In this document: in pieces, positions 5,228 through 21,938 of the stretch | How the letters are laid out: every line of letters begins with the position of its first letter | How positions within the stretch are numbered: position 1 is the first letter of the stretch | Assembly (NCBI GenBank): GCA_902774155.1 | Contig: CACYHF010000006.1 | Span: forward strand, 37,391-101,390 | Direction: 5' to 3' | Source: an uncultured Bacteroidia bacterium | GTDB taxonomy: Bacteria; Bacteroidota; Bacteroidia; Bacteroidales; UBA932 | DNA: 64,000 nt | Notes under the pieces: model-generated | What the model was told of the DNA's origin: nothing | Databases searched by the model: none | The model's input: only the letters and a program-made list of their open reading frames with translations | Translations under genes and position numbers: made by a program

Positions 5228-6229
5228 ATGGAAAACGCATTGAAAAACCGCAGTTTCCTGAAGCTGCTGGATTTTAGTCCGGAAGAACTCCGTTATCTCT
5301 TGGCCCTGGCACGGGACCTCAAGCAGGCCAAGAAAGCGGGTTCGGAGGTGCAACGCCTCCGGGGCCGGAACATCGCCCTTATTTTCGAAAAGACGTCCAC
5401 GCGTACCCGTTGCGCCTTCGAGACGGCGGCCCACGACCAGGGTGCCCATGTGACCTATCTGGGACCCACGGGTTCCCAGATCGGCATCAAAGAGTCCATG
5501 AAGGATACCGCGCGTGTGCTGGGACGGATGTTCGATGGCATCGAGTACCGCGGGTTTGCCCAGACAACGGTGGAAGAACTGGCGCGTTATGCCGGCGTCC
5601 CCGTCTGGAACGGCCTCACCGATGAAGCCCATCCCACACAGATCCTGGCCGATTTCCTCACCATGACCGAGCACAGCTCCAAACCCCTGGAGCAGATTCG
5701 GTACGCCTATCTGGGCGACGCCCGCTTTAATATGGGCAACTCGCTGCTGGTAGGGGGCGCCAAGATGGGGATGGATGTGCGGATGGTGGCGCCCAAGGAG
5801 TTGCAGCCGTCGGCCTGGCTCCAGGAGGAATGCCGGAAGATAGCCGCCCAGACCGGCGCCCGCATTACCGTCACGGACGATGTGGACGAAGGGGTGAAGG
5901 ACTGCGACTTCGTGTACACGGACATCTGGGTGTCCATGGGAGAGCCCGAGGGTGTGTGGAAAGAACGCATCGGCCTGCTGATGCCCTATCAGGTGAATGC
6001 TTCCCTGATGGCCCGTACCGGGAATCCCGCCTGCAAGTTCATGCACTGCCTGCCTGCCTACCACAACCGCGAAACCAAGGTAGGGGAGGAACTGTATCAG
6101 AAATTCGGTCTGGATGGGTTGGAAGTGACGGAAGAAGTGTTCGAAGGCCCGCAGAGCATTGTCTTCGACGAGGCCGAAAACCGTCTGCACACCATCAAGG
6201 CCGTGATGGTGGCCACACTTGGAGATTAG
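5228..6229 (+). CDS. argF: Ornithine carbamoyltransferase
   Basis: [32 protein letters not shown] motifs. Confidence 0.95.
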
Positions 6230-6253
6230 GAAATAATTGATTATATTGCGTTC

Positions 6254-6736
6254 ATGAGTAAAAAAAGATTTTCCATCGACTATGAGGAATTCGCTTCCGT
6301 ACAGGAGATGAGTCCGGAAGACCAGCAGTTGGTGGCTCTGGCCATAGAAGCGCAGAAAGGTTCCTATTCCCCGTATTCTCATTTCCAGGTGGGAGCTGCC
6401 TTGCGCCTGGAAGACGGAACCATCATCAAGGGCGCCAATCAGGAAAACGCCGCCTATCCATCGGGCCTGTGCGCAGAGCGTGTGGTCCTGTTCTATGCCG
6501 GTGCCAATTATCCCGACGTGGCGGCCGATACCCTTGCCATAGCAGGAAGCGATAAGGGCGTCCTTTGCGAAAGCCCGGCTTCGCCTTGCGGTGCCTGCCG
6601 TCAGGTAATGGCGGAAACCCAAAAACGTCACAGACATCCGCTGAAGACCATTTGGGTGGGGAGTAAGCGTATCCGTAAATTCTACAGCGTAGACGATATC
6701 CTGCCCTTCATCTTCGACAGCCTCAAAGTAGAATAA
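6254..6736 (+). CDS. cdd: Cytidine deaminase
   Basis: YSPYSHFQVGAA, CAER, PCGACRQ. Confidence 0.95.
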   Translation: MSKKRFSIDYEEFASVQEMSPEDQQLVALAIEAQKGSYSPYSHFQVGAALRLEDGTIIKGANQENAAYPSGLCAERVVLFYAGANYPDVAADTLAIAGSDKGVLCESPASPCGACRQVMAETQKRHRHPLKTIWVGSKRIRKFYSVDDILPFIFDSLKVE

Positions 6737-6741
6737 AAAAA

Positions 6742-6838
6742 GGGAAAGCCCCTTACATCGCACCGCTACAACCTCCTACCCTTGCTACATTCCTGTCCTG
6801 GGGGAGTTCAGAGGGAGCTGGTCGTGTAAGACTTTCCC
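6742..6838 (-). ncRNA. ffs: Signal recognition particle (4.5S) RNA
   Basis: Minus strand gggaaag...ctttccc closing stem; helix 8 CCAGG-ACA-GGAA-TGT-AGCA; TACCTTTG promoter at 6844-6851; followed by a U tract. Confidence 0.9.
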
Positions 6839-6864
6839 GGGCACAAAGGTAAGAAATCTTTTTC

Positions 6865-8055
6865 ATGATTGCAATTTATACCATCACCTCCGGTTTGCAC
6901 GATGAGCAATCCGTTTCCCGGCTCAGCGATTCCTTCCTGAAGGGGGTCTTCCCCGAGGGAGGTTTTTTGTATCAGGGAGCCGATTTCTCCGACTTCGGCA
7001 CCCATACGCTGGACCTGATTTATGTGCGCACCGGCGGTGCGGAAGGCATTTTCAAGAGCCTGCTGCCCGAAATGCGGGCGCGCGGAATCGGCCGTTTCTA
7101 TTTGCTCACTTCCGGAAAGAGCAATTCCCTGGCGGCTTCGCTGGAGATTCTTTCCTATCTGCAGCAGCAGGGGCTCAAGGGTGAAGTATTGCATGGCGGT
7201 CCCGCTTATATGCAGGAGCGTATCCAAATACTGGAACGGGTATCCCAGGCTCGTGCGAAACTGCAGGGCGCCCGTATTGGCGTAGTGGGGCAACCCTCGG
7301 ACTGGCTCATCGCCAGCCAGGCCGATCCTATGGCCATCAAGGACAAGTTGGGAGCTTCCCTGGTGGAAATTCCTATGGAAGAATTGTTGCTGGAAATCCC
7401 CCGGGCTCAGCAGAACGAGGCCCCGGCCGATGAACCGATGGCTCCGGCCGTCCGCCAGGCCTATCCCGGCGCTACCCAGATTTACCACGCACTGGAAAAG
7501 CTGGTGGAACGGTATGGTTTATCGGCCTTTACGCTCCGCTGTTTCGATTTGCTCACAGCGGTGGGCAACACCGGCTGCCTGGCGCTGGCTTCCTTCAACG
7601 CCGATGGCCTCCCGGCCTCCTGCGAAGGCGATGTCCCGGCGCTCCTGTCTATGATGGTGGCGCAGGCCGTGACCGGTTTTTCGGGCTTCCAGGCCAATCC
7701 CGCCCGCATTGACGTGGAAACGGGCCGAATGCTTTTCGCCCACTGCACCGTCCCGTTCAATATGGTGGGGAAGTGGCAGTACGACACCCATTTCGAGTCC
7801 GGCATCGGCGTGGGCATCCACGGCGAACTGCCGGAAGGCCCGGTGACGGTGTTCAAGCTGTCCGGCAAACTGGACCGTCACTTTGTAGCCGAAGGAGAAC
7901 TGCTTTATAATCAGTACGAAGACAATTTGTGCCGTACGCAGGTGATGCTGCAGCTCAAGCCGGAAGATGCCCGGTACTTCCTGACCCGTCCCATCGGCAA
8001 TCACCATATTATTCTTCCCGGTCACTGGCGGTCCGTTTTGGAGGAACTCCTATGA
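6865..8055 (+). CDS. L-fucose/L-arabinose isomerase-like protein
   Basis: LRCFDLL, ASCEGD, AHCTVP, THFESG motifs resemble the FucI/AraA superfamily C-terminal region. Confidence 0.6.
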   Translation: MIAIYTITSGLHDEQSVSRLSDSFLKGVFPEGGFLYQGADFSDFGTHTLDLIYVRTGGAEGIFKSLLPEMRARGIGRFYLLTSGKSNSLAASLEILSYLQQQGLKGEVLHGGPAYMQERIQILERVSQARAKLQGARIGVVGQPSDWLIASQADPMAIKDKLGASLVEIPMEELLLEIPRAQQNEAPADEPMAPAVRQAYPGATQIYHALEKLVERYGLSAFTLRCFDLLTAVGNTGCLALASFNADGLPASCEGDVPALLSMMVAQAVTGFSGFQANPARIDVETGRMLFAHCTVPFNMVGKWQYDTHFESGIGVGIHGELPEGPVTVFKLSGKLDRHFVAEGELLYNQYEDNLCRTQVMLQLKPEDARYFLTRPIGNHHIILPGHWRSVLEELL

Positions 8056-14055: not shown

Positions 14056-14179
14056 TGGTTAAAGGGTTTAGTTTTTAATTAGTTTTGTCAAAACTATAAA
14101 AATTTTAATTAATCGCCAAATATTCAGCCTCTTTTCTGCAAACACATTTCAAATAAATAGTACTTTTGTGGAAGAATAG

Positions 14180-14335
14180 ATGAATGATATGAAAAAGATT
14201 GGACTTTTTTCCGCGGCTCTGGGTATTCCGGAGAAGGTGGTCCCGCTTTGTATCATTCCCGTGGGCGTTCCGGCCGAGGATCCCGCACCCAAGGACAAGT
14301 GGAAACCCGAGAACATTCACTGGGAACAGTGGTAA
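14180..14335 (+). pseudogene. Nitroreductase relic (start of gene joined directly to its C-terminus)
   Basis: Translates MNDMKKIGLFSAALGIPEKVVPLCIIPVGVPAEDPAPKDKWKPENIHWEQW; the tail matches nitroreductase C-termini; TACTTTTG promoter at 14161-14168. Confidence 0.7.
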
Positions 14336-14337
14336 GG

Positions 14338-15252
14338 CTATTGGTGTTGAAATACCTTAATTGAGGCACGGTAGTCAGAAGGAGACATACCCACTGCCCG
14401 CTTGAAGTATCGGCCAAACAGGGCCTGGCTGGGGAAATTCAGGTCAAATGCGATTTGCTGAATGGTGTTGACGGTTGAGGACAATTGCGCCTTGGCCTCC
14501 AGGATTACGTAATCTTCAATCCACTTCAAGGCCGATTTTCCACTGGCTTTCTTGACAAGCGTGGTCATGTATTTTGCCGTAATGTTCATCTTGTCGGCAT
14601 AAAAACCGACCTCTCGGTTTTCCTTGCAATGGAGATTCAGAAGTTGCAGAAACTGCATCATTACCTCCCCCTGCCGCTGACCCGTTTCTTTTTCCGGAGA
14701 AGATGGGGTGATGATCCGGCAGGACAAAAGATAGAACAACCGTGCTATAAGGCCGAAGATTTCCTCCATACCGGGGCTGTTGTCACTGCTCTGTATCAAG
14801 TTGTATGATAGTTCTGTAAGGGAGCGGAATACGCTTGCCATCTTTTCGTCCAACTGGTAAACGGGGTTAATTTGCACATTCCTGAGGAAAAGATAGGCGT
14901 CTCCAATGTTGATTCGGGACAGGAAGCGCTCCGACAGGACCAAAAAGGTCGCCTTAAAGGACTCGTCTACCTTTTGGGATTCCGCAATTTGTGAGGGAAG
15001 CGCTATCAGGAGAGAATTCTTCTGGAGATGGATGGGACGCAGGTTGACGGCTCCATAACCGTTTCCCTGGTGGCAGAGTATCACCAAAACTTGTTTGAGT
15101 TTATACGGCTCCCAGCTGCCTTTGAACTTGGGGTTATGAAGAATGAGGATATCTTCTTGAAAGAGTCCCCACCATTCTGTATGGGTCAGATCTATTCTGG
15201 ACATCTGGAGGTTGTCCAGCTGCTTTTGGTTGAGCTTTTCATTCTGGTTCAT
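14338..15252 (-). CDS. AraC family transcriptional regulator
   Basis: C-terminal double HTH (YADKMNITAKY; TIQQIAFDLNFPSQALFGRYFKRAVGMSPSDYR). Confidence 0.92.
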   Translation of the reverse strand: MNQNEKLNQKQLDNLQMSRIDLTHTEWWGLFQEDILILHNPKFKGSWEPYKLKQVLVILCHQGNGYGAVNLRPIHLQKNSLLIALPSQIAESQKVDESFKATFLVLSERFLSRINIGDAYLFLRNVQINPVYQLDEKMASVFRSLTELSYNLIQSSDNSPGMEEIFGLIARLFYLLSCRIITPSSPEKETGQRQGEVMMQFLQLLNLHCKENREVGFYADKMNITAKYMTTLVKKASGKSALKWIEDYVILEAKAQLSSTVNTIQQIAFDLNFPSQALFGRYFKRAVGMSPSDYRASIKVFQHQ

Positions 15253-15405
15253 GGGCCTGCACTATTTTTCTGCTAAATTAAGCAATTTTTCCACTTTTAA
15301 ATAGGTTGAAGGAAAAAATGAACAATTATAAGGAATTTATGAGAACAAAATTGCCGTAAATTAGAGTATTTTTGCTGCCCCAATATTAGCTCCCAAGCCA
15401 AAAAG

Positions 15406-16566
15406 ATGAAAATTCTATTTGTATTAAATAATTTCTACGTAAAGGGAAATGGTTTGTCCGCGTCGGCCCGTCGTACGGTTCAAGCACTCAGAGACGCAGG
15501 AGAGGAGGTCCGCGTTTTATCCGGTCCCAACCCGGATCCCAATGGCCCGCAGCCCGATTTCCTGCTCCCCGGTTTTTATTTCCCCCTATTCCAGCCTATC
15601 ATTGACGCTCACGGGTATCATTTCGCTTCCGGGGATAAACGCATCATTGAAGAGGCTGTCCGCTGGGCCGATGTAGTCCATCTGGAAGAGCCCTTTGTGC
15701 TGGAGATAAAAACCATCAAAATTGCCAAACGGCTTGGCAAGCCGTTAACAGGAACCTACCATCTTCATCCGGAGAATGTTTTCTGTTCCCTGGGTATGGG
15801 CTGGTGGCACGGGATTAACAGCTTTATGCTCAAATTATGGAGAGACTGGGTGTTTAACCACTGCGCCTTCGTTCAGTGTCCCACGCAGAACGTATTTGAG
15901 AGGCTTCAGCGCTATCATTTCTCTTCCAAACTAAAGGTTTTCTCCAACGGACTCATTCCGGACCGTTGTATCCGCCCGTCCGAAATGCCGGCCGATTATT
16001 TAGACCCTGAACGTCCCCTCAAAGTGGTGTACATCGGGCGCCTTTCCGTAGAAAAAGACCAGCCCACACTCATTGAGGCCATCCGCCATTCGGCATACGC
16101 CAATCGTATTCAGCTGCATTTCGCAGGGCAGGGACCCAAAGCCAAGGCCTATAAAAAGATGGCCATGAAGCTGTATGAGAAAGGAATTGTCAAATACAAA
16201 CCTGAATTTGGTTTCTACAACAGGGACGACTTACGCACCTTAGCTGCCGGGGCCGACCTCTGCATCCATTGCGCCACCATTGAAGTGGAAGGCCTTTCCA
16301 TCATGGAGGCACTTCAGCAGGCCGCCGTACCGGTTATTGCCGAAGGCTACCACACGGGTACATCTCAGTTTGCCCTGGATTCCAGGAGCATTTTCCCCGA
16401 AAAGGATCCCAAGGCACTGGCCGAAAAGATGGACTGGTGGCTCTCCCATCCGGAGGAGCGCTGGGAAGAAGGCAAGCGCTATGTCAAGTCTATGGAGCAG
16501 TATGACATTGCCAATTCGGTCCAGGCCCTTATCAAAATGTTTGAAGAAGCCATTCAGAATCAATGA
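15406..16566 (+). CDS. Glycosyltransferase, GT4 (GT-B)
   Basis: NGLSASARR, YIGRLSVEK, EVEGLSIMEA motifs. Confidence 0.85.
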   Translation: MKILFVLNNFYVKGNGLSASARRTVQALRDAGEEVRVLSGPNPDPNGPQPDFLLPGFYFPLFQPIIDAHGYHFASGDKRIIEEAVRWADVVHLEEPFVLEIKTIKIAKRLGKPLTGTYHLHPENVFCSLGMGWWHGINSFMLKLWRDWVFNHCAFVQCPTQNVFERLQRYHFSSKLKVFSNGLIPDRCIRPSEMPADYLDPERPLKVVYIGRLSVEKDQPTLIEAIRHSAYANRIQLHFAGQGPKAKAYKKMAMKLYEKGIVKYKPEFGFYNRDDLRTLAAGADLCIHCATIEVEGLSIMEALQQAAVPVIAEGYHTGTSQFALDSRSIFPEKDPKALAEKMDWWLSHPEERWEEGKRYVKSMEQYDIANSVQALIKMFEEAIQNQ

Positions 16567-17327
16567 CAGTACTGATTACAGGTGGAAGCTCCGGAATGGG
16601 CTTGGAATATGCACGGCAGCTTGCTGGCCGGGGATATGACCTTGTTCTTGTGAGCAACCGGGAAGAGGAGTTGGACACAGCAGCGGAAGCGCTGCGCGCG
16701 CAATTCCCGATCAATGTCACCACCCGTTTCCAGGATCTGGCCGCGCCGGATGCTGCCGACAGTCTGTTCGAATGGTGTCAGAAAGAAGAGATCCTTCCGG
16801 ATATCGTTATCAACAATGCCGGAATGTTCTTTTTCAAGGAACTACAACCTGAGGACCTGGAAAGGGCCCAGGCTATGGTAAACCTGCACATAGTCACGGT
16901 AACCCGGATGTGTATGCTTTTCGGCAATGCTATGAAACAGCGTGGAAACGGCTATATTCTGAACGTGTCTTCTATGGCCGCCCGCATTCCGGCACCGGGC
17001 ATTACAATCTATTCGGCCACAAAGGCTTACCTCAAGAGTTTCGGCAAGTCGCTCTCCTATGAACTCAGACCATATGGAGTAAGCATCACAACGGTTTGCC
17101 CGGCGGCCATCGCCACGCCGCTTTACCGGCTGAGCCCTGAAAAGATGCGCCTGGGTGTTCGTATCGGCCTTGTCAAAACCCCGAAGTGGCTGGTAAACAG
17201 GGCCATTCGCGCTATGTTCCGCCGTCGGCGGGTTGTGAGTCCCGGTTTTATGAACGTTTGGCTGCCGCCGCTCATTGCCCTGCTGCCCGGGCCGCTGGTA
17301 GCCTTTATCTGGAAAAAGATTAAATGA
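16563..17327 (+). CDS. SDR oxidoreductase (candidate 3-beta-HSDH)
   Basis: TGGSSGMG, NNAG, NVSS, YSATK; adjacent to a 5-alpha-reductase. Confidence 0.8.
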   Translation: MTVLITGGSSGMGLEYARQLAGRGYDLVLVSNREEELDTAAEALRAQFPINVTTRFQDLAAPDAADSLFEWCQKEEILPDIVINNAGMFFFKELQPEDLERAQAMVNLHIVTVTRMCMLFGNAMKQRGNGYILNVSSMAARIPAPGITIYSATKAYLKSFGKSLSYELRPYGVSITTVCPAAIATPLYRLSPEKMRLGVRIGLVKTPKWLVNRAIRAMFRRRRVVSPGFMNVWLPPLIALLPGPLVAFIWKKIK

Positions 17328-18094
17328 TGTTTGATCCACACACATTCAATATATTCTTGATAGCCATGGCCGCAATGGCCGTGGTGGTGTTTATCTCCCT
17401 GTACCGCGTGAATGCCGGATACGGCAGATTCTACACGCCCAAATGGGGGCTATCCGTAGACAACCACCTGGGATGGTTCCTGATGGAGGCACCGGTATTT
17501 GTGGCTATGCTGTTGCTTTGGTGGCTGTCTGACCGCCGAACCGATGTGGTCCGTCTGGTTTTCCTGCTTATTTTTGAGAGCCACTATTTCCACCGTTCGT
17601 TCATCTTCCCCACGCAACTCCGCGGACATGGCAGAATGCCTGTATCCATCATTTTATCGGGCGTGCTTTTCAATACCCTTAACGCCCTCATGCAGGGCGG
17701 ATGGATCTTCTACGTTTCCCCTGTGGAGCGCTATCCGCTATCCTGGCTCACAAGCTTTCCCTTCATCTGCGGCACGGCAGTATTCCTTGCCGGGATGTTC
17801 ATCAACATCCAGTCCGACAGTATTATCCGTAACCTGCGAAAGCCCGGGGATACTGCACACTACCTGCCCCGCGGCGGTATGTTCGGCTATGTAACCAGTG
17901 CCAATTACTTTGGAGAATTCCTGGAGTGGGTGGGCTTCGCCATCCTCACCTGGTCCTGGGCGGGGGCGGTCTTTGCGCTCTGGACCTTTGCCAACCTGGC
18001 GCCGCGCTCCGCGCGTATCCATGACCTTTATCGGCAGGAATTCCCCGGAGAGCTAAGTCCCCGCACCAAGCGCATCATTCCTTTCCTGTACTGA
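17324..18094 (+). CDS. 3-oxo-5-alpha-steroid 4-dehydrogenase (steroid 5-alpha-reductase)
   Basis: GWFLMEAP, HYFHRS, ANYFGEFLEW, NLAPR (SRD5A-like motifs). Confidence 0.85.
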   Translation: MMFDPHTFNIFLIAMAAMAVVVFISLYRVNAGYGRFYTPKWGLSVDNHLGWFLMEAPVFVAMLLLWWLSDRRTDVVRLVFLLIFESHYFHRSFIFPTQLRGHGRMPVSIILSGVLFNTLNALMQGGWIFYVSPVERYPLSWLTSFPFICGTAVFLAGMFINIQSDSIIRNLRKPGDTAHYLPRGGMFGYVTSANYFGEFLEWVGFAILTWSWAGAVFALWTFANLAPRSARIHDLYRQEFPGELSPRTKRIIPFLY

Positions 18095-18095
18095 T

Positions 18096-19331
18096 ATGGT
18101 TGAATCTCCTGTTTTCACGCCCTTCAATATCGGCCCTGTGACGTTGCGTAACAGGGTTATAAGGTCGGCGGCATTTGAGAACATGGCTTATGGCAACAGC
18201 CCGTCGGAGGACCTGTATAACTATCACGTGGCTGTGGCCCGGGGCGGCGTTGGAATGACTACATTGGCCTACGCGTCCGTGGACCGGAGCGGTCTTTCTT
18301 TTGACGGACAGCTCTGGATGCGGGAGGAGATAGTCCCCGGCCTTAGACGCATTACGGATGCAGTCCATGCCGAAGGCGCCAAGTGCTCCATCCAGTTGGG
18401 CCACTGCGGCAACATGACGCACCGCGCAACCTGCGGCTGCATGCCCGTAGGTGCATCAAGCGGCTTCAACCTGTATTCGCCCACCTTTGTGCGCGGCCTG
18501 AAAAAGGCCGAGATTGACGCTTTGGTGGAGGACTTCGGCCACGCCGTGGAGCTGGCGCGGGAGGCGGGTTTTGACTGCGTGGAGATCCACGCCGGACACG
18601 GCTACCTCATCAGTCAGTTCCTGTCGCCTTACACCAACCATCGCAAGGACGAGTACGGAGGCTCGCTGGAGAACCGCATGCGGCTTATGCAGCGCGTAAT
18701 CCGGCGCGTGATGGAGGCCGCCGGTAACGATATGGGCGTGATTGTGAAAATGAATATGCACGACGGATTCCGCCGTGGGATGCAGGAGACAGAATGCCTG
18801 GAAGTGGCCCGGGAGCTGGAGCGGCTGGGCGTACATGCCCTTGTGCTGTCGGCCGGTTTTGTGAGCAAAGCGCCTATGGAGGTAATGCGCGGGGCCATGC
18901 CGCTGCGTACCATGACGCACTATATGGATATGCGCAAGTTCTGGTGGCTCAAGGCTATGGTTCGGATTTTCGGCCGAATGATGGTTCCCACGGTCCCGTA
19001 TAAGGAAGCCTTTTTCCTGGAGGATGCGCTCAAGTTCCGCGCGGCCGTGAAGCTGCCGCTGATCTATGTTGGAGGGATGGTTTCCCTCCGGAAGATGGAG
19101 GAAGTTCTGGCCGATGGCTTTGACGGCCTGCAGATGGCCAGGGCGCTGATCCGGGACACAGATTTTGTAAACAAGCTCCATAGCGGAGAGATAGACTGCA
19201 GTCCGTGCGGGCACTCAAATTACTGTATCGGACGAATGTATACCCTGGAGATGAAATGCCATCACTGCGTGGCCGACCTTCCTGATCGGCTGCAACGGGA
19301 GGTGGAAAAGGAAGAGGAAAAATGGAAATAA
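18096..19331 (+). CDS. NADH:flavin oxidoreductase, OYE family (candidate 5-beta-reductase)
   Basis: LRNRVIRSAAFE, IQLGHCG, EIHAGHGYLISQFLSP, YGGSLENR, C-terminal Cys cluster. Confidence 0.85.
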   Translation: MVESPVFTPFNIGPVTLRNRVIRSAAFENMAYGNSPSEDLYNYHVAVARGGVGMTTLAYASVDRSGLSFDGQLWMREEIVPGLRRITDAVHAEGAKCSIQLGHCGNMTHRATCGCMPVGASSGFNLYSPTFVRGLKKAEIDALVEDFGHAVELAREAGFDCVEIHAGHGYLISQFLSPYTNHRKDEYGGSLENRMRLMQRVIRRVMEAAGNDMGVIVKMNMHDGFRRGMQETECLEVARELERLGVHALVLSAGFVSKAPMEVMRGAMPLRTMTHYMDMRKFWWLKAMVRIFGRMMVPTVPYKEAFFLEDALKFRAAVKLPLIYVGGMVSLRKMEEVLADGFDGLQMARALIRDTDFVNKLHSGEIDCSPCGHSNYCIGRMYTLEMKCHHCVADLPDRLQREVEKEEEKWK

Positions 19332-20134
19332 ACGAAAGAATCATCGTTACCGGTGCTACGGGAGGTATGGGCGCCGCAGCAGTAGAAGCCCTTGCCAAAG
19401 AGGGGCATCCCGTTCTGATGGCCTGCCGAAATCTGAAAAAGGCCCAGGCCACCCGGGCCGATATCCTGAGCCGCGTTCCTGGTGCCAAGCTGGAAATAGG
19501 GCTGGTGGACCTGGCCTCTTTGGACTCGGTACGGGCTTTTGCAGAAAGTGTCGAGCCTGGCTCGGTATCGGCCCTCTTTAACAACGCCGGCGTCATATCG
19601 AGAGGCTTCAGCATAACCGAAGACGGCCTTGAAAACACTTTCTCTGTGAACTACTTCGGTCCATCGCTGCTTACCCGGCTCCTGCTGCCCAAACTGCCGC
19701 AGGACGCCCATATTGTGAATATGGTTTCGCTAACCTGCCGGTTCGTCTCCATTGACGAAGCCTCCCTTCGGCCCACCGCAAAGGATTTCAGGCAGCTCAT
19801 TACCTATGCCCGAGCCAAGCGGGCGATGGTTTCCTTCTCCCAGGAACTGGCACGAAGGTACCCTCTCCTGCACGTCAATATGGCCGACCCGGGTGTGGTC
19901 GGCACCGATATGATCGACCTGGGCTGGTGGTTTGACCCTTTTGCCGATGTCTTGGTTAAGCCCTTCTTCAAGACGCCTCAATCTGGCGTCCAACCCGCTC
20001 TTCGCGCCCTCCGGGAAGAAAAGCAAAACCGTTATTATGTAGGAAAACAGTGCAAGGCCATTCCGGCACGGTACATCAACCCGTTTCTGGATAAAAGTAT
20101 ATGGGAAGAAACCCAGAAAATCATTAAGTTATGA
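19322..20134 (+). CDS. SDR oxidoreductase (retinol dehydrogenase-like)
   Basis: TGATGGMG, DLASL, NNAG, VNYFG, YARAK, ADPGVVGT. Confidence 0.85.
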   Translation: MEINERIIVTGATGGMGAAAVEALAKEGHPVLMACRNLKKAQATRADILSRVPGAKLEIGLVDLASLDSVRAFAESVEPGSVSALFNNAGVISRGFSITEDGLENTFSVNYFGPSLLTRLLLPKLPQDAHIVNMVSLTCRFVSIDEASLRPTAKDFRQLITYARAKRAMVSFSQELARRYPLLHVNMADPGVVGTDMIDLGWWFDPFADVLVKPFFKTPQSGVQPALRALREEKQNRYYVGKQCKAIPARYINPFLDKSIWEETQKIIKL

Positions 20135-20880
20135 AGAAAATATCCATTATCCTTACGTTTTTATGCCTGTGCCAATTCATCCAGGCACAGCAATTATACA
20201 ATATGAGCCTGGACGAATGGTCCAAACAAGGACGTACCTGGAATCCTTTCCCCAAAGATGCCAGCGAAAAGCAGCTTGTATGGGCCAGTGCTAACGGCGC
20301 TATGAAGGTTTTGGGTGTCAATACCACTATGCCGGAATATGAACACGTGGCTGTCCCGGGACAGGGGAAGGCCGCGGCCAAGATTGTGAGCCGGAAAGTA
20401 ACCTGGGCCTTTGCCGCTGGCAGTCTGTTTACGGGGCATTTTATCCGCGTGGTGAACTTCTCGGGGATAGAAATGGACAACGGAACGCCCTTTACGGGAC
20501 GTCCCAAAAGTTTGTCGGGTTATTATCACTACCAACCTGGCGTCATTAACTATGCCAAGGAACCTTGTCTTTCTATGAAGGGGAAAACGGACATCGGCCA
20601 AATTGAAGTGGCCCTGTACGACTGGCCCCAGGCTCTCCGTCAAGTGACAAATGAAGGCCACTTTGATCCTGAAGCCGACCCCCACCTGATTGGAAGGGGC
20701 GTGCTGAAATTAACCCGGGCGACAGACGGTTACGTCCATTTTGAGCTTCCCATTGAGTACAGAAGGGACGACAAACCCACCTTCGTGGGAATATGTTTTC
20801 TTTCCAGCGCCTTGGGAGAGTATTTTACTGGCAGCAGCGATACCGTCCTGTACGTTGATGAACTCCAATTCAACTATTAA
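20131..20880 (+). CDS. Secreted PCMD (putative carbohydrate metabolism domain) protein
   Basis: Signal peptide; WASAN, AAGSLFTG, PFTGRPKSLSGYYHYQPG, LYVDEL. Confidence 0.75.
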   Translation: MKKISIILTFLCLCQFIQAQQLYNMSLDEWSKQGRTWNPFPKDASEKQLVWASANGAMKVLGVNTTMPEYEHVAVPGQGKAAAKIVSRKVTWAFAAGSLFTGHFIRVVNFSGIEMDNGTPFTGRPKSLSGYYHYQPGVINYAKEPCLSMKGKTDIGQIEVALYDWPQALRQVTNEGHFDPEADPHLIGRGVLKLTRATDGYVHFELPIEYRRDDKPTFVGICFLSSALGEYFTGSSDTVLYVDELQFNY

Positions 20881-20882
20881 TA

Positions 20883-21827
20883 ATGAAGAAAATGAACATT
20901 CCCCTGATGGGCACGCTGTTGGTGTTGTCCATCATCGTATGCCCCATTTTGTATTTCACTGTGGGTCCGGCCTTGGATGAAACGCAGTTGGAAACGTTGA
21001 AAATACTGGGCATCATTTGCGCCTGCAGCGCTGCATTCTGCTTTATCGTGGGAGAGCTTACCGGTAACAACAGCCAGATGGATAAGCTTTGGAGTCTGCT
21101 GCCGATAGCCTATACCTGGGTGATTGCCGTTAAGGGCGGGATGAGCCTCCGGCTGGTGGTGATGGCTGTTCTGGCAACGCTGTGGGGGATTCGGCTCACC
21201 TTTAACTTCGCACGGAAGGGAGCCTACAAACTCAAATTCTGGGAAGGCGTGGAAGACTACCGTTGGGCGATTGTCCGCTCCGGTGCCCCCTTCCATAATA
21301 ACCGTTGGGCCTGGGCAGCTTTCGACCTGGGTTTCATCTCCGTCTACCAGAATGCGCTGGTTCTGATGACCATTTTCCCCGCCCTGGTTGCCATGTCATC
21401 GGCCGTTCCCTTCGGCTGGGTAGACGGTCTGGCCGCAGTTCTTATGCTGGGCTTCATCATCTGGGAAACCATTGCCGATGAGCAGCAGTGGGCTTTCCAG
21501 ACAAAGAAATGGTCCATGCTGAACGAGGGGAAGAAGCTGGAGGATCTTCCCGCTCCGTATAACAAAGGTTTCAATACCACAGGCCTTTGGGCCCGCAGCC
21601 GCCATCCCAACTATTTTGCCGAACAGGGCACCTGGGCGGCCTTCTATATCTTCTCCATCGGTGCGGGTATGGGAATCATCAACTGGAGCATCATCGGCGC
21701 CTTGCTCCTGATGGTCCTTTTCCAAGGCAGTTCCTCGCTGGCCGAGGAAATCAGCGGCGGGAAATATCCCGAGTATGACCAATACTGCCGCAGCGTTCCC
21801 CGTTTCTTCCCCGGGAAGCATATATAA
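20883..21827 (+). CDS. DUF1295 / steroid 5-alpha-reductase-family membrane protein
   Basis: DKLWSLLP, WGIRLTFN, EDYRW, ETIADEQ, GLWARSRHPNYF. Confidence 0.85.
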   Translation: MKKMNIPLMGTLLVLSIIVCPILYFTVGPALDETQLETLKILGIICACSAAFCFIVGELTGNNSQMDKLWSLLPIAYTWVIAVKGGMSLRLVVMAVLATLWGIRLTFNFARKGAYKLKFWEGVEDYRWAIVRSGAPFHNNRWAWAAFDLGFISVYQNALVLMTIFPALVAMSSAVPFGWVDGLAAVLMLGFIIWETIADEQQWAFQTKKWSMLNEGKKLEDLPAPYNKGFNTTGLWARSRHPNYFAEQGTWAAFYIFSIGAGMGIINWSIIGALLLMVLFQGSSSLAEEISGGKYPEYDQYCRSVPRFFPGKHI

Positions 21828-21829
21828 AC

Positions 21830-21860
21830 AAAAAAGTCGCTGAAAATCAGCGACTTTTTT
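21830..21860. terminator. Bidirectional terminator between the steroid operon and tRNA-Asp
   Basis: aaaaaagtcgctga-aaa-tcagcgactttttt. Confidence 0.85.
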
Positions 21861-21863
21861 AAG

Positions 21864-21938
21864 CGGTGCGGACGAGGCTCGAACTCGCGACCCCCGGCGT
21901 GACAGGCCGGTATTCTAAACCGACTGAACTACCGCACC
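21864..21938 (-). tRNA. tRNA-Asp (GTC)
   Basis: GGTGCGG acceptor stem, anticodon arm CCGGC-CTGTCAC-GCCGG, TTCGA T loop. Confidence 0.97.

Follow-up and report, generated by a model that had tools for sequence, protein, structure and literature searches.

This analysis concerns an operon of seven genes in a 64,000-nucleotide stretch of DNA (the window) from an uncultured Bacteroidales bacterium of the UBA932 lineage (contig CACYHF010000006.1, assembly GCA_902774155.1), known as a metagenome-assembled genome (MAG) of 2.43 Mb in 88 contigs. According to the open reading frame listing and the Pfam scan, the seven plus-strand genes span 15406-21827 and neighbours overlap or lie at most 2 bp apart, with junctions of -4, -4, +1, -10, -4 and +2 bp in order from the leading glycosyltransferase gene, GT4, to the last gene, DUF1295. 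A first-pass annotation had taken the locus for an expanded steroid or bile-acid modification operon: seven tight, co-oriented genes, closed by a single terminator and diverging from an AraC regulator. That layout was confirmed by the listing, the Pfam scan and the terminator hairpin. Three modules, which also occur separately in relatives, make up the operon: a steroid A-ring cassette (SDR1-5AR-OYE-SDR2), a regulator-glycosyltransferase unit (AraC, GT4 and PCMD) and the pair SDR2-DUF1295. Its features are as follows.

14161-14337, plus strand: C-terminal remnant of a nitroreductase gene, 51 codons; the frame translation ends in GIPEKVVPLCIIPVGVPAEDPAPKDKWKPENIHWEQW and a stop
14338-15252, minus strand: AraC-family regulator, divergent from the operon (HTH_18, E 1e-18)
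15253-15405, no strand: divergent control region common to AraC and GT4, a 153-bp spacer with a -7 box, TATTTTTG, at 15367-15374 (plus strand)
15406-16566, plus strand: GT4, first gene of the operon (Pfam Glyco_transf_4 and Glycos_transf_1)
16563-17327, plus strand: SDR1, a classical short-chain dehydrogenase/reductase (SDR) and candidate 3-hydroxysteroid dehydrogenase (adh_short, E 4e-38)
17324-18094, plus strand: 5AR, an SRD5A-type 3-oxo-5-alpha-steroid 4-dehydrogenase (PF02544, E 6e-42)
18096-19331, plus strand: OYE, an NADH:flavin oxidoreductase of the old yellow enzyme family and candidate 5-beta-reductase (PF00724, E 1e-58)
19322-20134, plus strand: SDR2, retinol-dehydrogenase/LPOR-like (adh_short, E 7e-24; closest NCBIfam model PRK06197)
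20131-20880, plus strand: PCMD-domain protein, predicted to be exported (PF13201, E 4e-34; signal peptide MKKISIILTFLCLCQFIQAQ)
20883-21827, plus strand: DUF1295, a polytopic membrane protein of the sterol-reductase/ICMT superfamily (PF06966, E 5e-41)
21829-21861, no strand: bidirectional intrinsic terminator hairpin with a perfect 15-bp stem and A/T runs on either side

The terminator hairpin is abutted by a tRNA-Asp gene (minus strand, 21863-21938). At the other end, the spacer between AraC and GT4 holds one Bacteroidetes-type -7 box, 32 nt upstream of the GT4 start, a motif that occurs 44 times on the two strands of the whole window. Within the operon (15406-21827), the motif scan gave no full promoter motif; a sigma70-type scan is uninformative for Bacteroidota. 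The GT4 stop codon lies inside the ATGA that starts SDR1, and AraC(-)-GT4(+)-SDR1 is spanned by single contigs in three independent ruminant metagenome runs (cattle and sheep among them), so that the arrangement is real and no assembly artefact. Contigs from RNA libraries bridge four of the six junctions (GT4/SDR1, OYE/SDR2, SDR2/PCMD and PCMD/DUF1295), at low depth and with possible DNA carry-over. Three RNA-library runs also carry a 3-nt deletion at 20878, at the extreme end of the PCMD gene, which is probably strain variation.

The centre of the operon is its best understood part. Against the PDB, 5AR matched 7C83 (E 4e-47) and human SRD5A2, 7BW1 (E 2.5e-38), and TECR-type enzymes only at 1.8e-7; the corresponding scores were 164 and 135 bits for the SRD5A1/2 and PbSRD5A matches versus 34 bits for the TECR type. 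Residues E55 (WFLMEAP) and Y88 (HYFHR) align with human QELPSF and HYFHR, the Glu/Tyr pair of the steroid-ketone site, reported as catalytic for the SRD5A2 structure. The protein, encoded by a single-copy gene, is thus a true SRD5A1/2 homologue. OYE starts 1 bp after 5AR, and an SDR gene lies on either side of the pair. Its product has a C-terminal cysteine cluster (residues 368, 371, 377, 388 and 391), lacks an FAD/NAD domain, and matches the BaiCD model at E 2e-58, well under the cut-off of that model. SDR1 carries TGxxxGxG at residue 6, YSATK at residue 150 and a hydrophobic C-terminal tail; PDB searches with SDR1 and SDR2 returned generic SDRs only.

How constant is this gene set? We tallied 58 related loci with enough flank around 5AR (L, G, C and P numbers below are our handles for loci, genomes, contigs and members of the GT4 family). 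OYE adjoins 5AR in 57 of them, SDR2 is present in 50 and SDR1 in 47, and a PCMD protein occurs in 30, 27 of these being a divergent subtype 24% identical to that of the window. The second SDR had been regarded as an extra that could extend a core pathway; since 50/58 loci carry SDR2 and 30/58 a PCMD protein, neither is an addition to the cluster. GT4 lies beside 5AR in three of the 58 loci, as does AraC; DUF1295 does so in three (four counting L003) and a PF00756 esterase in seven. Among 401 sampled genomes of the order, 5AR copies of at least 46% identity were followed by OYE in 7/7 fetched loci and by one or more SDR genes in 6/7; these seven syntenic genomes belong to six families and share 51-63% identity in 5AR, 56-65% in OYE and 43-48% in SDR1. 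The experimentally validated cluster has the order Bacdor_03091 (5AR), Bacdor_03090 (5-beta-reductase, 5BR) and Bacdor_03089 (3-beta-hydroxysteroid dehydrogenase) (Li et al. 2021, 10.1101/2021.01.08.425963). Because both homology and gene order match, we file the core with this type: it would be a member of the 5AR/5BR/SDR steroid A-ring clusters of Bacteroidales. The first-pass assignment of the core trio to steroid A-ring chemistry is therefore supported by SRD5A1/2 homology, by the order-wide 5AR-OYE-SDR synteny and by the published gene order.

Several observations surround this core. A second class of 5AR-like genes, 31-43% identical to that of the window, stands alone, with neither OYE nor SDR (L124-L128 and L136-L139; genomes G312, G332, G101, G053, G387, G114, G163, G246 and G348, mostly large-genome Bacteroidales), and could be mistaken in surveys for the bile-acid 5AR. 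The Bacteroides thetaiotaomicron control genome gave PF02544 and PF13201 signals, and no locus was recovered from it. In MAGs from horse faeces (L071, L074, L075), OYE and SDR1 are separated by an inserted gene for a secreted six-hairpin glycoside hydrolase (MGH1-like/rhamnosidase-like, 484 aa), which would fit steroid glycosides, saponins for instance, as substrates. In the next-closest clade (L006/L007, 7213-9147), a small TonB-dependent receptor (644 aa) stands immediately 5' of SDR1. The legend of Figure S5B of Li et al. lists 5AR homologues in Neocallimastigomycota (rumen fungi) and Metamonada (10.1101/2021.01.08.425963), a distribution that hints at gene transfer within gut ecosystems.

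Which steroids, then, does the cassette meet? The published cassette has been validated on 3-oxolithocholic acid (3-oxoLCA), 3-oxo-delta4-LCA and 3-oxoalloLCA (10.1101/2021.01.08.425963), and the first-pass annotation had named as one possibility a bile-acid pathway of the kind that makes isoallolithocholic acid (isoalloLCA), extended by glycosylation of the 3-beta-hydroxyl. The best 80 loci encoding 5AR all come from uncultured Bacteroidales, two of them labelled Candidatus Cryptobacteroides, and they were binned mostly from rumen, reticulum, omasum or abomasum (cattle, yak, goat, sheep, buffalo and deer), with a few from horse faeces. Bile joins the gut downstream of the ruminant forestomachs and abomasum. 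With the nearest relatives being MAGs from rumen, reticulum and omasum, which bile does not reach, the cassette is unlikely to act on bile acids in nature, and plant sterols or sapogenins are likelier substrates. The sequence occurs in cattle, goat and sheep runs that bear the label 'gut' metagenome and could include hindgut samples, which would leave room for bile acids; on the other side, our search found no paper on bacterial bile-acid glycosides, and CGT-type enzymes (see below) use neutral sterols. On balance, we regard a glycosylating bile-acid route as improbable. The rumen itself turns diosgenin-type sapogenins into smilagenone, smilagenin, epismilagenin and tigogenin, steps to which genes have not been assigned.

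The same habitat could also speak for a substrate made by the cell. The cluster, found where bile is absent, might act on an endogenous non-steroid isoprenoid or lipid, such as a polyprenol, a quinone or a sphingoid intermediate, that is reduced and then glycosylated; the steroid activity known from human-gut strains would be a side reaction. The SRD5A/DUF1295 superfamily includes polyprenol and enoyl reductases (among them an art-1 match), and conservation among relatives (66-94% for 5AR, 69-92% for OYE) is unusually high for a xenobiotic pathway. Set against this are the far closer relationship of 5AR to the steroid enzymes than to the TECR type, the patchy distribution of the cluster (20 of 37 genomes of the genus), which is unlike that of a housekeeping pathway, and the report that deleting the Parabacteroides merdae cluster abolishes bile-acid conversion, the only effect given (10.1101/2021.01.08.425963). 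An endogenous substrate has, in our estimate, a slim chance of being the right answer.

The leading gene, GT4, has its best solved relative in PDB entry 3QHP, CapJ of Helicobacter pylori (E 1.8e-29, 106 bits, 42% identity over 163 residues); the next PDB match reached 34 bits (E 1.8e-7). A review equates the knockout of cholesterol alpha-glucosyltransferase (CGT) with delta-CapJ, and HP0421 with CGT. The EX7E motif is kept in the window protein (E293..E301), all curated NCBIfam GT4 models score at most 38 bits against it, and those for diacylglycerol glycosyltransferases reach just 20-24 bits. The family comprises 214 clusters at E<=1e-30, and in many of its members, about 600 residues long, the C-terminal part is a PlsC-type acyltransferase domain (PF01553; P0394, P0401, P0405, P0413, P0415 and P0425). 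These fusions point to a family of lipid rather than polysaccharide glycosyltransferases, and we read the window protein as a putative lipid glycosyltransferase. One further member, P0416, is fused to an N-terminal CutC domain; our literature search found neither descriptions of acyltransferase or CutC fusions to GT4 nor a paper on CGT-like enzymes in Bacteroidales. GT4 occurs in 9 of 401 genomes of the order and 12 of 37 of the genus, and the genome of the window has three copies. A role as a capsule or polysaccharide transferase was ruled out because none of the three copies (0/3) lies in a polysaccharide locus, and one as an order-wide housekeeping gene because of the 9/401 count.

A lipid acceptor need not be a steroid. 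GT4 could be an ordinary membrane glycolipid synthase that uses diacylglycerol or ceramide with the help of PCMD, beside a cassette that works alone; the neighbourhood would then be inherited and inverted by chance, and no steroid glycoside would be made. The frequent fusion to acyltransferases agrees with such a role, and so does the discovery of HP0421 itself, which Lebrun et al. reportedly found through its likeness to diacylglycerol alpha-glucosyltransferases. Three paralogues exist in the genome, and GT4 genes of a second subtype (64-67% identity) pair with an exported PF00756 esterase next to yebC, in a housekeeping YebC-esterase-GT4 locus. The low scores of the diacylglycerol models fit this explanation poorly.

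The esterase deserves a remark of its own. Genes of the GT4 family recurrently pair with an exported PF00756 'putative esterase', in either order (L152-L156; L104, L109, L112, L114, L116, L121 and L140), and one GT4 subtype sits in a conserved recF-yebC-esterase-GT4 locus. PF00756 includes sugar-6-O-acyl transferases such as antigen 85, and an acyl-glycolipid pathway is conceivable. A link to the window was rejected, the GT4-associated esterase orthologue of this genome being unlinked, at C11.

The domain match of PCMD is firm (119 bits against a cut-off of 28, residues 28-246, behind an N-terminal signal sequence); its PDB relatives are only uncharacterised structural-genomics entries such as 3HBZ, and its structural model has a pLDDT of 48.8. 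The gene is single copy in the genome of the window (G000), in G385 and in G080 and each time lies beside, or in an operon with, a GT4-family gene: G385 has the order AraC(-) GT4(+) PCMD(+), and G080 has GT4 at C5:3420-4574 and PCMD at C5:5039-5812. The two are also adjacent in G006, G027, L144-146 (as overlapping genes) and L147/148, so that the adjacency has been seen in at least three families of the order. By our estimate, PCMD would adjoin one of one to three GT4 genes by chance in a few per thousand cases per genome, taking about 2,000 genes and uncorrected for shared ancestry. As PCMD adjoins GT4 and also sits in 27 steroid clusters that have no GT4, a shared ligand class is the simplest common denominator, and PCMD may form an indirect functional bridge between GT4 and the steroid cluster. 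An ordinary glycolipid role for GT4 leaves unexplained why this rare gene is embedded in those 27 clusters; the GT4-PCMD pairs that exist without 5AR speak for such a role.

The second part of the GT4 module is its regulator. Only four loci, those of the window, L001, L002 and L004, have AraC and GT4 on the flank of the cassette. In the latter three loci the AraC orthologues (75-89% identity) lie on the same strand as SDR1 and abut it, and the two-gene segment runs the opposite way from that of the window, AraC leading and GT4 diverging; window 14347-16564 aligns to L001 9240 -> 7034 (the segments compared were window 14338-16566, L001 7034-9240, L004 7000-9218 and L147 6943-9151). In either orientation, whichever gene adjoins SDR1 terminates in the SDR1 ATGA, and the AraC/GT4 spacer is kept. 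AraC also diverges from GT4-PCMD in G385 and in L147/148. The latter two loci have the window orientation, and GT4 is joined to PCMD across a 127-bp stretch left over from the SDR2 3' end (L147 9155-9282; the same in L148). Because this remnant is still present, we interpret L147/L148 as deletion derivatives that lost SDR1-5AR-OYE-SDR2 and kept AraC, GT4 and PCMD. L147 is 88% identical to L004 and has the opposite orientation, and the window is closer to L001, again the opposite; with both orientations inside each of two close pairs, the segment must have been inverted at least twice.

A search around the AraC-GT4 segment gave no clear inverted repeats on its flanks, just a short and imperfect resemblance around ATTG...TGAA, and no recombinase nearby. 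An invertible switch was rejected: long inverted repeats were not found, and the contigs of four DNA runs show one orientation and no strand-switch joints, although contigs are prone to drop rare variants and may have missed a minority orientation. At the left edge of the rearranged segment, between hdeD and AraC, sits the nitroreductase remnant, too short for a Pfam match; an intact nitroreductase gene stands 5' of AraC in L147, and the remnant is a rearrangement scar at the junction. Window-type GT4 genes lie near the cassette in four arrangements: directly in front of it (window), across AraC (L001/2/4), 6 kb away (L006/7) and 3.4 kb away (L149/150), the last two at 73-76% identity and with differing genes in between. 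Neither this recurrence nor the tight ATGA junction with SDR1 in both segment orientations is explained if GT4 makes an ordinary membrane glycolipid.

The last gene, DUF1295, completes the composite. Its match to Pfam ERG4_ERG24 (E 4e-4, 19.7 bits against a cut-off of 27) covers the C-terminal part only and fails the gathering score. In fold searches with its AlphaFold2 model (pLDDT 74.6), the best hit was 4QUV, a delta14-sterol reductase (probability 1.0, E 0.013, TMq 0.45), followed by ICMT (TMq 0.31). The modelled protein thus seems reductase-like, and its chemistry may be that of a reductase or of a methyltransferase. DUF1295 is 80-93% conserved among more than 120 clusters and occurs in 10 of 37 genomes of the genus, a count that rules out a universal housekeeping gene. 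Across the genus it goes with GT4 (both genes are present in 7 genomes, GT4 alone in 5, DUF1295 alone in 3 and neither in 22; odds ratio 10, Fisher p = 0.006, ancestry uncorrected) and does not co-occur with 5AR (p = 0.72). The window, L001, L002 and L003 are the only loci in which it comes after the cassette; in L026 it is found close by. In L157/158 (6192-7930), SDR2 (87% identical) and DUF1295 (90% identical) stand alone with a 4-bp overlap, and uvrA follows downstream as in the window. A relative within the genus (L115, G028:C32, 546-7998) has DUF1295 with an AraC homologue, a PhzF-like protein, a transporter resembling bile-acid:sodium symporters and two DUF3298-like lipoproteins, the transporter and the lipoproteins being putative assignments read from the sequence by eye.

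How might these modules work together? In the first, OYE and 5AR would interconvert 3-oxo-4-ene steroids with the 5-beta and 5-alpha 3-ketones, and the SDRs would set the 3-hydroxyl. In the second, AraC would control the divergent promoter region, GT4 would be a membrane-associated retaining lipid glycosyltransferase of the H. pylori CGT family, and PCMD an exported partner whose probable ligand in the envelope is this lipid or its sugar head group. In the third, the sterol-reductase-like membrane protein DUF1295 may, next to SDR2, reduce a further C=C bond. We propose that plant steroids (phytosterols, steroidal sapogenins and their 3-oxo-4-ene forms) would be taken up and saturated to flat 3-beta-hydroxy-5-alpha, or to 5-beta, stanols, and that their 3-hydroxyl would then be glycosylated to a stanyl glycoside, kept as a membrane lipid or as a detoxified conjugate. 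A single flow is suggested by the position of GT4 at the head of the cassette, and it fits the known rumen chemistry of diosgenin as well as the precedent of 3-hydroxyl sulfation by BT0416. We put the probability of this whole flow, from neutral plant steroids through saturation and epimerisation to 3-hydroxyl glycosylation, at roughly 0.4, and consider a plain glycolipid role for GT4 nearly as likely.

What holds the estimate down is mostly the glycosyltransferase. The earlier idea of glycosylation draws support from the CGT homology and from the shared PCMD partner; GT4 itself is not conserved in the cluster. It has no place in 55 of the 58 related clusters (3/58 loci, and 9/401 genomes), an absence that makes up one half of what the first-pass annotation had named as counting against its idea. 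Diacylglycerol may be the acceptor, and steroid glycosylation survives as a hypothesis. Several further points weigh against our proposal. GT4 and 5AR do not co-occur in the genus (8 genomes with both, 4 with GT4 only, 12 with 5AR only, 13 with neither; p = 0.32, n=37, shared ancestry uncorrected), and the GT4-PCMD pairs that lack 5AR were found in G006 and G027, both incomplete genomes. In a FastTree phylogeny of the C-domain (124 sequences, about 160 columns, support values not assessed), the window GT4 and its two paralogues form a clade separate from H. pylori CGT, which groups with P0410, P0462 and P0454, beside acyltransferase-fused members that suggest glycerolipid chemistry. Since the H. 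pylori enzyme falls in another clade, sterol specificity is not transferable to GT4 by homology alone. The comparison with CGT moreover covers the C-domain only, the only part of CGT in the PDB, and leaves the acceptor-binding N-domain outside; the closest of the best 150 representatives to the 3QHP fragment is 57% identical to it, and full-length H. pylori CGT is not among them. The RNA contigs stem from poly(A) libraries and give shallow evidence, and the co-occurrence and adjacency counts as a whole are uncorrected for shared ancestry.

The proposal can be widened. Bacteroidales of herbivore guts may have a so far undescribed sterol-handling system, in which an AraC-controlled, CGT-like glycosyltransferase and an exported PCMD protein would take up 3-beta-hydroxysteroids of plant or host origin and make steryl or stanyl alpha-glycosides for the envelope. 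In the species of the window, the cassette and DUF1295 would flatten and saturate unsaturated or 3-oxo steroids beforehand, an order suggested by a transcript shared with GT4; the same genes would then explain the ruminal conversion of diosgenin-type sapogenins. As a joint claim, this is rather doubtful. The conversion of diosgenin-type sapogenins in the rumen is linked to hepatogenous photosensitisation in sheep, and to our knowledge steryl glycoside synthesis is so far known only in cholesterol-scavenging pathogens (Helicobacter, Borrelia and mycoplasmas). If GT4 does glycosylate steroids, such synthesis would no longer be confined to a few pathogens but include abundant gut commensals, and a sugar would join sulfate and acyl groups as a new type of conjugation in microbial steroid metabolism. 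The operon also provides candidate genes for the ruminal hydrogenation and epimerisation of phytosterols and steroidal sapogenins, conversions relevant to faecal stanol biomarkers and to saponin-related liver disease of grazing animals.

Part of the picture holds even if GT4 is an ordinary glycolipid enzyme. The 'isoalloLCA' cassette is widespread where bile acid is absent, and its usual form has two SDRs and often PCMD. Its modular assembly is evident whatever GT4 makes. Apart from this, the operon offers a candidate function for PCMD, a Bacteroidales-specific domain. The core was already known; new are its physical and probably transcriptional fusion with a CGT-like glycosyltransferase, the GT4-PCMD and SDR2-DUF1295 pairings and the recurrent inversion.

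Finally, we would like to set the operon beside the systems it most resembles. With the isoalloLCA clusters (Bacdor, Parmer_04016-18 and BVU_1964-66) it has in common an SRD5A-type reductase followed at once by OYE, with one or more SDR genes adjacent and tightly coupled. It differs from them in having two SDRs and an exported PCMD protein, although both are common in herbivore-gut lineages, in adding AraC, a CGT-like GT4 and DUF1295, and in belonging to a forestomach bacterium whose substrate is probably no bile acid. A second reference for the Bacteroidota isoalloLCA cluster is Sato et al. (2021). The published cluster is substrate-inducible (10.1101/2021.01.08.425963), and in the loci compared here the synteny reaches across families of the order.

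H. pylori CGT (HP0421/CapJ, 3QHP) and the window GT4 are both retaining GT-B enzymes of family GT4, 42% identical in the C-domain, with the EX7E motif kept, and stand alone outside polysaccharide loci; they also share a length class of about 386-389 aa. Unlike CGT, the window enzyme falls in a separate clade, is operonic with steroid reductases and is paired with a PCMD protein, whereas the follow-up enzyme of CGT is the acyltransferase HP0499; and H. pylori is a cholesterol-auxotrophic pathogen, the window host a commensal. DUF1295 probably shares with the ERG4/ERG24 sterol reductases (MaSR1, 4QUV) and ICMT a polytopic fold and the C-terminal RHPNY... cofactor region, but its Pfam score is sub-threshold (19.7 versus 27 bits) and its TM-score is 0.45. 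The nearest functional precedent within the phylum is BT0416 (BtSULT) of B. thetaiotaomicron, which, according to a review, sulfates the 3-hydroxyl of flat 5-alpha/3-beta steroids such as isoalloLCA and cholesterol. There, as proposed here, a member of the Bacteroidota conjugates the 3-hydroxyl of a flat steroid, but the chemistry is sulfate rather than sugar, the proteins share no homology, and BT0416 is not linked to a 5AR cluster.

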